This document shows positions 3,487 through 25,984 of a DNA stretch of 64,000 nt, piece after piece; the stretch's first letter is position 1; each line of letters begins with the position of its first letter. The notes below the pieces were generated by a model. That model saw nothing but the letters and a program-made list of their open reading frames with translations, had not been told where the DNA came from and ran no database searches. Position numbers and translations under genes: made by a program. This stretch comes from a virus (Duplodnaviria > Caudoviricetes), in IMG/VR virus record IMGVR_UViG_3300013383_000001, positions 1 through 64,000 of that record; one strand, given 5' to 3'.

Positions 3487-3517
3487 TTTGTCATTATAAA
3501 TAATGGATCTAATTTTG
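3487..3517 (+). promoter_or_regulatory. Bacteroidota housekeeping-sigma promoter
   Basis: TTTG (3487-3490), 19-nt spacer, TAATTTTG (3510-3517), matching the -33/-7 consensus TTTG-N19-21-TAnnTTTG. Confidence 0.65.
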
Positions 3518-3521
3518 ACGT

Positions 3522-3881
3522 ATGGAAACAAAGATATTATATCGTAACATTAATGGTAAAGAATAGCTCTTCCTAAACGGAGAAGAGCTTCCTCTCAAGA
3601 AGTTTCTTGATATGTTCTTTACAGATGAAAAAGAAGAATCATTCATTGATGAGTATTTAAATAATGTAGCACTTGTAGATGATGATGTGGTAGATAATGC
3701 AATGAATATGCTTTCTGATAACTATTGTATTGAAGAATATATAGATCTCCTTAATAAGGATAATCATAATCCTACTGAACTTGCAATACTTTCAGACTTT
3801 ATTGATGATGCTAAACTTGCATTAAAAATTGAGATTGATAATAAGATTGAATTTCTTAATGAATTGAAAGATAAACTTTAA
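3522..3881 (+). CDS. hypothetical acidic protein (one in-frame TAG=Gln)
   Basis: ATG 3522 METKILYRNINGKE(TAG 3564)LFLNG continues in frame into track ORF 3612..3881. Confidence 0.7.
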
Positions 3882-3940
3882 ATACCTGTAATTACAGGTA
3901 ATACTGGGGTATGATTGTAATGGTTAGCAAGTCGGTCTCT

Positions 3941-4931
3941 TAAAATTAAAGTAATGGAAAATAGAATTTATAAACTTACGGATGAAGAGTTTTTAAACTT
4001 AGTTAAGTCAAGTTTAAATATCTCAGAAGTTTTATTCAAACTTGGATTGACTACAGTTGGTAACAGTTGGGGTTATTCTCAAGTTAAACAAAGAATGACA
4101 GATTTAAATTTGACAGGTAAGGATTTCCGAGGTAAGAATACAACTCATATTGAAAAGAGTGATAAAATTGATCCTAAGAAATTATTGTGTGAAAACTCTA
4201 GGCATCAAAGAACGGTTCTTAGAAAATATCTTATTAAACATGATTTAGTTTCTTATAAATGTGCAATTTGTGGAATTAAAGAATGGCAAGGTAAAACCCT
4301 TTCTCTTGAACTAGATCACATTAACGGAGTTAATAACGATAATCGATTAGAGAATCTAAGGTTCTTATGTCCTAATTGTCATTCTCAAACTACAACATAC
4401 GGAGCTAAAAATAAACAAGTAGTTGAATCAAAATATGAAATATCTGATGAATTACGAGAACTTATTATAAATGCTTACCACAAATTGCAGTCTTATAAGA
4501 AGATTGCTAATAAATATAATTTACAACTTAAAGCAGTTAAACAAGTTCTTTCTGATGCAGGTCTAACTAAACAGAAGCAGAAGTATGTAATTCAGTATGA
4601 TATGAATCATAATGAGATTCGTAGATTTGGTTGTATAGCAGAGTGCTGCCAGTGGTTAATGGATAATAACATTGTTAAAACAAAACTATTAAAAACTTGT
4701 AGCACTACATTAAAGAGAAATGCAAATAAACTCTGGAATAACTATTACTTTGAAATATTGGATGCTTAAAGGATAATACATAATCTTTAAGTAGAATCTC
4801 CTTTAATTGACTTGGAAGCGTATAGTGACAGGGCGCAAGCAGAGAAATCGTGCAGCGTGAACGACTAAACAAGGAGACTGGTCTTAGGACTGGATGTGAT
4901 AGTCTAATCCATTAAAAATGGTGTTAAAATG
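3941..4931 (+). mobile_element. group I intron in tRNA anticodon (position 35/36)
   Basis: 5' exon ends in U and intron ends in G; P3 TCTCCTT(4797)/AAGGAGA(4871); P7 GACTA(4863)/TAGTC(4900); ORF lies upstream of the core. P1 is weak, so the splice site is inferred from restoring a 7-nt anticodon loop. Confidence 0.85.
3954..4769 (+). CDS. intron-encoded HNH homing endonuclease
   Basis: CAICG...LELDHING..DNRLENLRFLCPNCH motif; NUMOD1-like C-terminus; no TAG. Confidence 0.9.
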   Translation: MENRIYKLTDEEFLNLVKSSLNISEVLFKLGLTTVGNSWGYSQVKQRMTDLNLTGKDFRGKNTTHIEKSDKIDPKKLLCENSRHQRTVLRKYLIKHDLVSYKCAICGIKEWQGKTLSLELDHINGVNNDNRLENLRFLCPNCHSQTTTYGAKNKQVVESKYEISDELRELIINAYHKLQSYKKIANKYNLQLKAVKQVLSDAGLTKQKQKYVIQYDMNHNEIRRFGCIAECCQWLMDNNIVKTKLLKTCSTTLKRNANKLWNNYYFEILDA

Positions 4932-5240
4932 AAAACCGAAAGTCATGGTTCAAATCCATGTACCCCAACTCGTGTATACTTTAGATACAATAATATTATT
5001 TATTATCCCAAAGATTTAAATAAGAAATTAAAACAGCTTGGGATTACAATAAATGATATTGAAGTATTAGATGAACCTCCTACTAAAGATATAGAATTTA
5101 TTCCTACTCAATGGAAGTATATCTTTAAAAATAAAAAAGGAGAAACCTTATGTAGTAATTTATCTTTAGAAGAATTAATTAAAAATGATGTTGGAAGCAC
5201 AGATTATTCTCAATGGGAAATTGTAGAATGTAACAAATGA
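4929..5240 (+). CDS. hypothetical protein overlapping the tRNA 3' exon
   Basis: 103-aa ORF; its only in-frame ATG ends on the intron's terminal G; start site uncertain. Confidence 0.5.
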   Translation: MKTESHGSNPCTPTRVYFRYNNIIYYPKDLNKKLKQLGITINDIEVLDEPPTKDIEFIPTQWKYIFKNKKGETLCSNLSLEELIKNDVGSTDYSQWEIVECNK

Positions 5241-5356: not shown

Positions 5357-5398
5357 AAAGGAGGGTAGCAATTAAGCTACTCTCCTTTTTTATTTTTT
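5357..5398. terminator. intrinsic terminator between convergent gene blocks
   Basis: AAAGGAGGGTAGC-aattaa-GCTACTCTCCTTT hairpin followed by a T tract. Confidence 0.8.
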
Positions 5399-23388: not shown

Positions 23389-23641
23389 GAAGGAATATAT
23401 TGGAAAACTTGAGGTAGAAGCACTTGAACCTGAAGGTTATTCGGTAACTTTATATCCTCAAGGAGAATATGAACCAATGTAGTTTTGTGCATATCTAGAT
23501 GATGAAGCATTTGTTAAATAGTTGAGAGAATTTATTAGACAACGTAAGTTTCATCTATGCACATACGGACGTATGGAAAAGGTTCAACCGTATTTATGCT
23601 AGCCAATTAATAAATCATGTAGTTGTAATGACGAAGGATGA
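23333..23641 (+). CDS. hypothetical protein between terL and portal (TAG=Gln)
   Basis: MSITDIEQL...YIGKLEV; 102 aa under code 15. Confidence 0.7.
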
Positions 23642-25984
23642 ATTAATTGAAAAAACGGATACTACTATCAACGAATTAGTTTATCCGAAATGGAATTTGT
23701 AGAAAGCATACAACTACTATAATGGAGTAAGAGATAAAGATCAGTTTAAGTATCTTGAAGAGAAATTTGGTACAAGTACTCCTACTGAACTTAATTTTAC
23801 TCCTCTTATAAAGAAGCATATAGATGCTTTAGTAGGTGAATACTTAAGTATGCCTATAATTCCGAAAGTGTATTGTAAAGATAGTGAAACCATTTCTAAC
23901 ATGGATCGCGAAAAGCAATTAAAGGTTGTTTCTGAAATACACTCATTTTTAAAAGGACATCTTAAATAGAGTATCTTGAAATTTATGAATGGTAAAGATA
24001 CAGATGATCCCTTAATCGCAGAATAGATTGAAGATATAAAAGACTCTATTGATAATACTTTTGTTTCAGAATATGAAGCAGCAGCATAGAATGTTGTTGA
24101 TTATATTATTCAATCTAGAGATACTGATTTAATACCTTCTCTTAGGAATTTGATAATGGATCTACTTATAACAGGATTTACTTTTTATAAAGTAGAACCC
24201 ACTGTAAGTGGAGATAATATAAAGATAAGAGTATTAAATCCATTAAATACATTTATAGATAGAAATCTTGAATCACCATACATTAAAAATTCTTATCGAG
24301 CAGTTGTAAGAAATTGGATGTCAAAGAATGAAATTCTTAATAAATATGGAAAGAAAATGTCTCAAAAAGATAGAGATCTTTTAGAAAGTCATTGGCAATC
24401 CATATATGACAATTCAATGTATTATGTTAGAATGTAGAATGATAAGACAGGTAGACCTATGACAGATGGACTAATGGCGGGTGTAGAAGTTACTCCTGGG
24501 TATCCAACGGTAGGACATCACGGTATTAATTGGGAATTGATACCTGTTTATGAGGTAGAGTGGTTGGAGGTTGATAAGAATTTTGTCATGTAGAGATATG
24601 AAACTATTAGAATAGGAGAAGAGATTTATATACTTACAGGTAAAGTTGAGGATGTTCAACGTAGTAAATCTAATCCTAACTATTGCGGATTATCTATAAA
24701 CGGTGTGTATTTCTTGAATAGAAGTTCAGAACCTTACTCTATGGTGCTTGCATGTGCACATTTGCAGGATTAACGTCTTACCAGTCCTGCTAAAATCTCG
24801 TGAATTGCTGAGAAATCTTTGAAATGAAAATCAGCATCCTATTTTATAAATAAATTGGATCAACGACTATTCTAATAGAATAATAAATAAAGCGCGAGAA
24901 TATTAACTAGATTAATATATGAGATAGTCTAATTTACAAATAATTGAGGTATGACCTTTTGAACTTCTATCGTGATAATTTGATAGCTAATAGCGGTACA
25001 GTAGGTGATTGGATTGATGAAACATTAATCCCTGCACATTTAGGTGTTAATATGCCTGAACGTATTGCCCGATGGATAGAATTAAAGAAGCAAGGTATTG
25101 CATTATTAAATTCTTCTGATGAAGGTAGAGCTACATCTTCTGGACCGTTAAATACTATTTTTAATGGTTATGATGATACCATTAAAGTGCAAGCAATTCA
25201 GTCTATACAAGTTGCATTAGATTCTATAGAAGCTACTACATCATCAATTACAGGTGTCTTCAGAGAAAGATTAAATGGAATTGAGCAAAAAGATGCAGTA
25301 ACTAATATTAAGCAAGGAGTAAATAATTCATTCATTATAACCAAGCAATATTATCATTAGATGGATTTAGTAGTGAATGAAATATTACTTGATTGTTTGA
25401 ATCTATCTAAAAGAGTTTTTGCTAATGGTTTAACAGGTACGTTAGTACTTGGGGATAAGTATTAGAAGATATTTACTGCACTTCCTGAATACTTTACTAT
25501 GACAGATTACGATATTCGTGTAGTTACAAGTTCGGAAGCAGTTAAAGATCTTGAATAGATTAAGGCTATTGTACCTGAATTTGTAAAAGTAGGTGCATTA
25601 CCTCCTGATATTGTAATGGATGCTTTAACTAGTAAGAATTTGCCTGATCTTAAATAGAGAGTTAAGATTGCTATGAAAAAGTAGAAAGCAGAGAATAATC
25701 AACTACAGCAATTATCTCAAAAAGCTCAAGAACTCGAATAGCAATTACAACAAGCATCTAAACAACTAGAAGCAGCAAATAAAAAAGTAGAACAACTCAA
25801 TCAAGAGAAAATGCAATTAGAAAAACAGAAAATAGATATGCAATACAAAGTAGACTGGTTTAAAGCACAAACAGATCGTGATTATAAAAAGGAAATGTCT
25901 GAGGAAACTAAACGTAGGACAGATTTGGAGTTAGCATAGCTCCATGATGGTAATCTTTATAACGATAAAATTGCTCAGGTTTAA
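23628..25984 (+). CDS. portal protein; exons 23628-24770 and 24947-25984 (TAG=Gln)
   Basis: KAYNYYNG, PLIKKHIDALVGE, GVFRERL motifs; junction AHLQD|RYDLL; Q-rich coiled-coil C-terminus; position after terL. Confidence 0.85.
24771..24946 (+). mobile_element. ORF-less minimal group I intron (176 nt) in portal
   Basis: P1 GCAGGAT/GTCCTGC; P3 TCTCGTG/CGCGAGA; P4 TGCTGA/TCAGCA; P7 GACTA/TAGTC; terminal G; removal restores the frame. Confidence 0.85.

Follow-up and report, generated by a model that had tools for sequence, protein, structure and literature searches.

Group I introns in the anticodon loops of tRNA genes are classic elements of cyanobacteria, plastids and some proteobacteria. Bacterial and plastid tRNAs for Leu (UAA), fMet, Ile and Arg are known to carry them (PMC3984707), and according to the same 2014 review the phage introns then known all resided in protein-coding genes, despite the many tRNA genes that phages possess. 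Suppressor tRNAs of phages have been found adjoined by theta ribozymes, which are similar to the ribozyme of hepatitis delta virus (HDV-like), and a role in the switch of genetic code has been proposed for them (PMC10879173). Previous reports also describe crAss-like genomes that are clearly TAG-recoded yet without a detectable suppressor tRNA, and the explanations offered there are host suppressors, incomplete sequences and very divergent tRNAs (PMC7886860, PMC12386605). Here we analyzed the first 64 kb (64,000 nucleotides, hereafter the window) of the virus record IMGVR_UViG_3300013383_000001, which comprises 166,364 bp with terminal repeats and 31% G+C. Our results make it very probable that positions 3905 to 4968 hold the only recognisable amber-suppressor tRNA gene of this phage, and that the gene is split between U35 and A36 of its anticodon by a mobile group I intron with an HNH gene.

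Both exons of this tRNA(CUA) gene lie on the plus strand. The 5′ exon (3905–3940) provides the 5′ strand of the acceptor stem, the D arm, the 5′ strand of the anticodon stem and C32 U33 C34 U35, and the 3′ exon (4932–4968) supplies A36 A37 A38, the 3′ strand of the anticodon stem, the variable loop, the T arm and the 3′ acceptor strand, with A as discriminator and no encoded CCA. When 3940 was joined to 4932 in silico, ARAGORN called a tRNA(cta) of 74 nt, whose acceptor stem has 7 bp and whose anticodon stem has 5 bp, with CUCUAAA as its anticodon loop; of 81 neighbouring junctions tried, this was the sole one to yield CUA. The original prediction, made from the letters of the window, had placed two tRNA halves 991 nt apart and joined U3940 to A4932. 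Its coordinates and junction proved correct, the tRNA-finder run on the spliced sequence that it had proposed returned the tRNA(cta) just described, and its claim that the CUA anticodon arises only by splicing holds, as the join of U35 to A36 alone gives CUA. The tRNA bears U1-A72, G2-C71, G3-C70 and U35, positions that are Gln identity elements in E. coli tRNA-Gln, and its discriminator is A, not G. By its U1-A72 pair it appears Gln-like, and we infer that it would be charged with Gln.

Relatives of the element, found by DNA search and by protein-guided search, show the same intron, 66–77% identical, in other phage contigs, again inserted between U35 and A36. It lies between ...CUCU and AAA... 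in tRNA(CUA) genes with five further bodies, all of them beginning with U1 and ending with A72, and their anticodon stems differ among lineages yet stay complementary in every one through mutually compensating changes. All six lineages gave a tRNA(cta) in ARAGORN when spliced in silico, the 3′ junction of one of them (L007, a copy without the terminal G) having been set by hand. Since five other lineages share the arrangement with different, mutually compensating stems, the split tRNA is not a product of chance.

The position of the junction was obtained from intron-less alleles. Two of these bodies also occur as uninterrupted tRNA(CUA) genes, in 55 IMG/VR contigs and joined exactly as predicted, and some of the copies are base-for-base identical to the joined exons plus downstream flank of intron-bearing copies. 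In the comparison of the intron-bearing locus L008 with four intron-less loci (L054, L069, L023 and L039) the flanks are mostly 91–99% identical, with one outlying block at 85%, and the alignment breaks at the exon ends and continues from the first 3′-exon base; this presence/absence polymorphism belongs to a sister lineage (L008) rather than to the tRNA body of the window itself. The boundaries U|...G| thus follow from the comparison alone and fit the group I rule, and U3940 is fixed as the 5′ splice site from homologous alleles with and without the intron. Splicing after U3941 was rejected because relatives have A or C at this position (two lineages), and because of the intron-less alleles. 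Where a tRNA body is known with and without the intron, as is the case for two of them, uninterrupted copies outnumber split ones by about 10:1. At least 9 kb of sequence was available for 20 of the intron-less loci, and 18 of these are TAG-recoded. Both the split halves and the intron-less alleles for which the original prediction had suggested a search were found.

The 991-nt insert (3941–4931, plus strand), with ends taken from the intron-less alleles of relatives, displays a P2–P9 core that includes the P3/P7 pseudoknot. The core was drawn by hand on an alignment (A1) of eight sequences from six lineages, in which the pairs were counted, and all helices are given for the plus strand. The P2 hairpin (4766–4790), whose 5′ strand overlaps the stop codon of the open reading frame (ORF) in the intron, has 3 compensatory pairs and 96% of alignment cells paired, and it is followed by the conserved junction GUAGAA (4791–4796), which precedes the 5′ strand of P3. 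The strands of P3 (4797–4803 with 4871–4877) pair in 100% of cells, with compensatory changes in 5 of the 7 pairs. P4 (4811–4832; 4811–4814 with 4829–4832) encloses a variable P5 and is likewise 100% paired, one pair being compensatory and one changed on one side, and P6/P6a (4833–4858; 4833–4836 with 4855–4858 and 4839–4840 with 4852–4853) is mostly invariant with a single compensatory pair. The 5′ strand of P7 (4863–4867) lies within an R-like element and its 3′ strand (4900–4904) within an S-like element; the helix has one compensatory pair, and the 3′ strand was placed by covariation and by comparison with T4. The P8 hairpin (4878–4893) shows 2 compensatory pairs with 100% pairing, three of the four pairs of the P9 hairpin (4909–4921) are compensatory, and the last intron base, the terminal (omega) G at 4931, is G in five of the six lineages. 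Over all core helices 98.7% of cells pair, versus 37–45% in controls with the partners displaced by one to three columns. Both sides have changed in 16 of the 39 core pairs, and none of 500 shuffles reached the observed values. The elements AACGACUA and AUAGUCU are common to the intron and to T4 td and nrdB, at places where the T4 introns align to the Rfam consensus, and the 5′ exon ends with U and the intron with G, as is characteristic of group I boundaries. Judged by covariation and boundaries, the insert is a group I intron for which splicing is predicted.

The phage depends on TAG as a sense codon. When TAG was read as sense, the cover by stop-to-stop ORFs rose from 67% to 92% and the longest ORF grew from 675 to 3996 aa; as controls, TGA as sense gave no such rise, and TAA raised the cover without longer ORFs. 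About 75 ORFs, mostly late and structural and including the large terminase (TerL), portal and tail genes, contain in-frame TAG read as Gln, in agreement with the original claim that dozens of late genes need TAG = Gln. They are located in a plus-strand block at approximately 18.7–110 kb and a minus-strand block at 5.4–15.3 kb, and the minus-strand arm at approximately 110–166 kb is almost TAG-free. In TerL, Gln is dominant at 6 of 8 TAG columns over 119 homologues, versus a background of 4%, counts that are partly circular insofar as the database homologues were themselves called with TAG = Q. For this reason the codons of two TerL homologues were read at the DNA level, and at the same 6 of 8 TAG positions at least one of the two has a genuine CAA or CAG codon. 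Read from these codons, TAG is Gln in the phage genome. TerL shares approximately 28–29% identity with the terminases of named crAss-like phages, and 49% with that of an unverified record of a human-gut phage in which the split tRNA is found as well, which points to a divergent crAss-like phage. Phage size, recoding and intron load are reminiscent of the Zeta group of Yutin et al. (PMC7886860), a placement by resemblance only. The portal gene also drew attention, as the N- and C-terminal parts of portal family phrog_6547 are found in adjacent plus-strand ORFs (window 23628–24773 and 25052–25984), and the split of about 280 nt is probably another intron.

Whole-genome searches with ARAGORN and the Rfam tRNA model recovered two copies of tRNA-Arg(UCU), a tRNA-Gln(UUG), and partial matches at two split genes. 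These searches revealed no second CUA tRNA in the 166-kb genome, and no other CUA tRNA was present among the tRNA matches recovered from four intron-carrying relatives. A second, uninterrupted CUA tRNA, which according to the original prediction would have removed the gating role of the intron, was thus looked for genome-wide and not found. Since the split gene is the sole CUA tRNA found, splicing would be obligatory for translation of the late genes, as the original prediction had also proposed. As a separate observation, two relatives carry uninterrupted tRNAs with a UUA (ochre-type) anticodon beside the split tRNA(CUA) (G004, L189:3226–3311, minus strand; G003, L191:623–693, plus strand), and the DNA flanking L189 and L191 showed TAG recoding and no TAA recoding.

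The intron contains an ORF of 271 aa (3954–4769, plus strand) with no in-frame TAG, and its product matches Pfam PF01844 (HNH) over residues 103–146 with 27 bits, above the cut-off of 21.4. This bears out the TAG-free HNH ORF that had been noticed at first sight of the DNA. All six lineages have kept this ORF whole and without TAG, over a total of approximately 1630 codons, as would suit a gene that is translated whatever the state of suppression. A PDB sequence search with the HNH protein returned no relative. The site-exact presence or absence of the intron among close relatives (L008 versus the four intron-less loci) is the footprint of homing, and the HNH product is likely to act as a homing endonuclease that cuts intron-less tRNA(CUA) alleles.

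The family is not confined to the suppressor. A second split tRNA gene of the same genome, tRNA-Leu(UAA), lies outside the window (160736–161567, minus strand; G000:C1, locus L004) and carries, at the classic position U34|A35, a group I intron of 745 nt that includes an HNH ORF of 167 aa. Its recognisable elements are P2, which has a GAAA loop, the GUAGAA junction, P3, P7 and P9, and its HNH protein is 39% identical to that of the tRNA(CUA) intron, i.e. the two are paralogous. With this paralogous intron, the family is seen to invade the anticodon loops of tRNAs in general. The neighbourhood of the Leu gene has further peculiarities. A third HNH ORF (161834–162559, minus strand; G000:C1 161572–162559) begins 15 nt downstream of tRNA-Gln(UUG). 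It contains two in-frame TAG codons, of which one is aligned with Q in its paralogue. It is followed at approximately 161572–161636 by a tRNA-like element with acceptor stem, D arm and T arm and with about 8 nt in place of the anticodon arm; this element sits just before the 5′ exon of tRNA-Leu and could be what remains of a tRNA, or else a signal for processing.

For P1 we propose a candidate internal guide, GGA at 4760–4762 (plus strand), which would pair with U3938-C3939-U3940 and place G4760 opposite the splice-site U. It lies 3 nt before P2, within the last codons of the ORF, and is conserved in six of six lineages, with no covariation within the family. In the sister Leu intron the equivalent place before P2 is occupied by GAGU, which is complementary to the ACUU that ends its exon. 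If the GGA guide is right, the endonuclease gene sits in the P1 loop. Other guides were tried and rejected: AGUAGA before P3 is the conserved junction and is present also in the Leu intron and in the Rfam consensus, a GGA in the start-codon region is absent from two lineages, and a motif about 185 nt into the ORF is accounted for by coding.

According to our hypothesis a precursor would be transcribed, possibly from a site at 3487–3517 to one at 5357–5388. The first is a Bacteroidetes-type promoter-like match to the pattern TTTG-N19-TAnnTTTG (plus strand), a pattern with 8 matches in the window versus 2.7 expected, and it could possibly, on this weak indication, drive a small ORF, the tRNA and the intron; the second is a strong intrinsic-terminator-like hairpin (plus strand) with a 13-bp stem and a subsequent T run that would end the unit. 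The intron would then fold through P1–P9, an external guanosine would attack after U3940, and the freed U3940 would attack after G4931, so that ligation of the exons yields the loop CUCUAAA, a junction that the comparison of alleles shows. Host enzymes would trim the ends and add CCA, and the Gln-charged tRNA(CUA) would read TAG in the approximately 75 mostly late or structural ORFs. The TAG-free endonuclease could be translated from the precursor or from the excised intron and would cut the intron-less tRNA(CUA) of co-infecting relatives, whereupon the intron is copied in, i.e. homing. The intron would persist since a recoded phage cannot lose the gene that hosts it, and exact excision alone is tolerated.

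Two features at the edges of the tRNA gene deserve mention on their own account. A perfect 16-nt palindrome (window 3884–3899, plus strand) lies upstream of the tRNA, separated from it by 5 nt. It might represent what is left of a terminator, or else a hairpin that serves in processing, and is not conserved in the relatives read. At the other end, an ORF of 103 aa (window 4929–5240, plus strand) reads through the 3′ exon, and its sole in-frame ATG consists of the last three intron bases, with the terminal G as its G. If this ATG at 4929 is used, the protein can only be obtained from unspliced RNA. The homologues in L006, L012 and L015 have an ATG of their own after the tRNA, and hence the placement in the window looks lineage-specific, perhaps following the loss of a start.

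The interpretation of a spliceable suppressor gene should be weighed with some caution, since several points count against it. First, the Rfam group I model RF00028 failed to score the intron at E-values up to 10, whether 1201 nt (3850–5050) or 181 nt (4760–4940) were searched, and it gave no group I match on four related loci; as controls, T4 td and nrdB scored 40.3 and 35.7 bits, both under the gathering score of 50. A covariance model (R1) made from the eight sequences of the core alignment recovered nothing but the intron itself when run on the 166-kb genome, being too narrow to link other introns. The group I core of the original prediction has stood by covariation, and the group I covariance model has not lent support. 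Secondly, P1 is a candidate of just 3 bp. Thirdly, charging of the tRNA(CUA) with Gln is something we infer. Fourthly, the tRNA body of the window itself was not found in intron-less form in IMG/VR or in metagenomes of the Joint Genome Institute (JGI): an exact pattern had no match in IMG/VR, a looser one retrieved 113 unrelated tRNA(CUA) genes, and the scan of JGI metagenomes retrieved two unrelated tRNAs with the same anticodon arm. Intron-less alleles of the L012 and L015 bodies were likewise not found in either collection, and the intron may be fixed in these three lineages. Finally, the copy in a Bohxovirus sp. (L007:1436–2486; PV686213.1, Suoliviridae) is without P9 and terminal G, which implies that intron copies can decay. 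The tRNA loop of this copy reads CUCU...AAC, and in one candidate helix the splice-site U faces a different base; probably the intron is in decay here and the tRNA dead.

What the intron does for the phage is a separate question, and our best reading is that it is a selfish passenger, an optional mobile element and not an evolved switch. Four results lead to this view: the intron-less alleles, the similarity of their flanks, the recoding of phages that lack the intron, and the paralogous intron in tRNA-Leu(UAA). It could further be hypothesized, tentatively and as an addition that we consider possible rather than likely, that the endonuclease besides homing serves in competition between phages, by cutting the essential suppressor gene of rivals and so blocking the translation of their late genes. 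The HNH ORF has been kept intact and TAG-free in six lineages, the presence/absence polymorphism is sharp between flanks that are mostly 91–99% identical, the target gene is essential in recoded phages, and there is a precedent in the intron endonuclease of PhiPA3, which interferes with a co-infecting phage (PMC11620839). However, ordinary homing accounts for the same data, and the hypothesis adds to the passenger reading without replacing it. An endonuclease aimed at a tRNA on which the late genes of rivals depend would in any case offer a system for testing introns as weapons between phages.

The original prediction went further and proposed a ribozyme-gated code switch, in which slow or regulated splicing of the suppressor sets the onset of translation of the TAG-containing late genes. 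Consistent with such a timer, splicing is an obligatory step towards the sole CUA tRNA found, and no intron-less allele was found for the bodies of the window, L012 and L015. If the GGA at 4760–4762 is the guide, ribosomes on the HNH ORF would moreover compete with the formation of P1, and a ribozyme-linked code switch has been proposed for the HDV-like theta ribozymes (PMC10879173). We nevertheless regard the timer as unlikely. For two bodies the uninterrupted alleles are about tenfold commoner, and they occur in equally TAG-recoded phages; as 18 of 20 intron-less loci are recoded, the code switch works without the intron. An ordinary tRNA-Leu(UAA) is split by a paralogous intron too. Group I introns of tRNAs are generally fast-splicing, and no sign of regulated or slow splicing was seen here. 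The possible host-type promoter and the TAG-poor genes that surround the tRNA(CUA) gene give no hint of late expression either. This part of the original prediction was consequently not upheld, and of course the natural alleles with and without the intron make the timer idea directly testable.

A narrower version would confine a rate-limiting splicing checkpoint to lineages in which the intron is apparently fixed (this phage, L012 and L015). In such a scheme the guide would belong to the final codons of the HNH gene, with the 5′ splice site 820 nt upstream of it, so that ribosomes translating the endonuclease block P1, and mature tRNA(CUA) and late translation would appear only after synthesis of the endonuclease subsides. 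We consider this improbable, to about the same degree as the general timer; if true, it would constitute a ribozyme- and translation-coupled timer of a genetic-code switch. Finally, it is very unlikely that the intron no longer splices and the tRNA is a pseudogene, with TAG read by a host tRNA or an undetected phage tRNA, as the failure of the Rfam group I model, the weak P1 and the loss of P9 and terminal G in L007 might suggest, since compensatory changes preserve every core helix and the tRNA stems across lineages, the exons of intron-bearing copies are identical to intron-less alleles that look functional, and about 75 ORFs need TAG decoding with no other CUA tRNA found in this phage or in four relatives.

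The passenger reading has consequences for annotation. Default ARAGORN called no tRNA in the 64-kb window, a scan with Rfam at gathering thresholds left the window without any match, and the Rfam tRNA model picked up the 3′ half alone, as a partial match at 4919–4968 with 13.7 bits. The intron mode of ARAGORN, which assumes the archaeal/eukaryotic intron position, reported L008, L009 and L011 as tRNA-Lys(ctt) and reported nothing for L006, L010, L015 and the window; L007 was also called Lys(ctt) in this mode. The original claim that standard scanners overlook the gene therefore stands for ARAGORN and the Rfam tRNA model, the scanners that were tested. Automatic annotation would miss or misname split suppressor tRNAs. 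An intron inside the anticodon may thereby account for recoded crAss-like genomes that have been reported without a suppressor, and a search for split tRNAs would improve both the annotation of gut-phage genomes and the prediction of their code. In full-text literature searches no earlier description of a group I intron within a suppressor tRNA of a phage came up, and the present locus would widen the host range of tRNA introns.

Compared with the tRNA introns of bacteria and plastids, the element is predicted to be a self-splicing group I intron like them and occupies the same place, inside an anticodon loop, so that the anticodon is whole only after splicing, and the sister Leu intron even uses the classic Leu(UAA) site U34|A35. 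The differences are that the host is a phage, the tRNA an amber suppressor and the site 35|36, and that an HNH gene of about 0.8 kb would fill the candidate P1 loop. With the group IA introns of T4 td and nrdB it shares that these are mobile and phage-borne, with R and S core elements and a terminal G after P9, and with nrdB also an ORF of the HNH family. The T4 introns, in contrast, split protein-coding genes, have a P7.1/P7.2 insertion between P7 and P3 that is absent here, and receive 36–40 bits from RF00028, which leaves the tRNA(CUA) intron unscored. The intron ORFs of td and nrdB sit in other loops.

The endonuclease I-Ssp6803I is a member of the PD-(D/E)XK family, as opposed to HNH here. 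It is nevertheless similar in being encoded by an intron, that of Synechocystis tRNA-fMet, and in targeting the anticodon region of a tRNA, and differs in that its host is a bacterium and its target an initiator tRNA (Bonocora and Shub 2001, cited in PMC3984707). In PhiPA3 the HNH endonuclease of a phage group I intron likewise targets an essential gene of related phages; there the target is an RNA polymerase gene and the competition is documented, whereas the present element is known from its sequence (PMC11620839). Theta ribozymes resemble the locus insofar as the maturation of a suppressor tRNA requires a ribozyme there too, likewise in gut phages with TAG recoding. An identity with them was rejected, as the element is located within the anticodon loop and possesses a group I core, and no Rfam ribozyme family matched within 3850–5050. 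Theta ribozymes are small, self-cleaving and situated at the 3′ end of the tRNA, whereas the element described here is a group I intron inside the anticodon that carries its own mobility gene.

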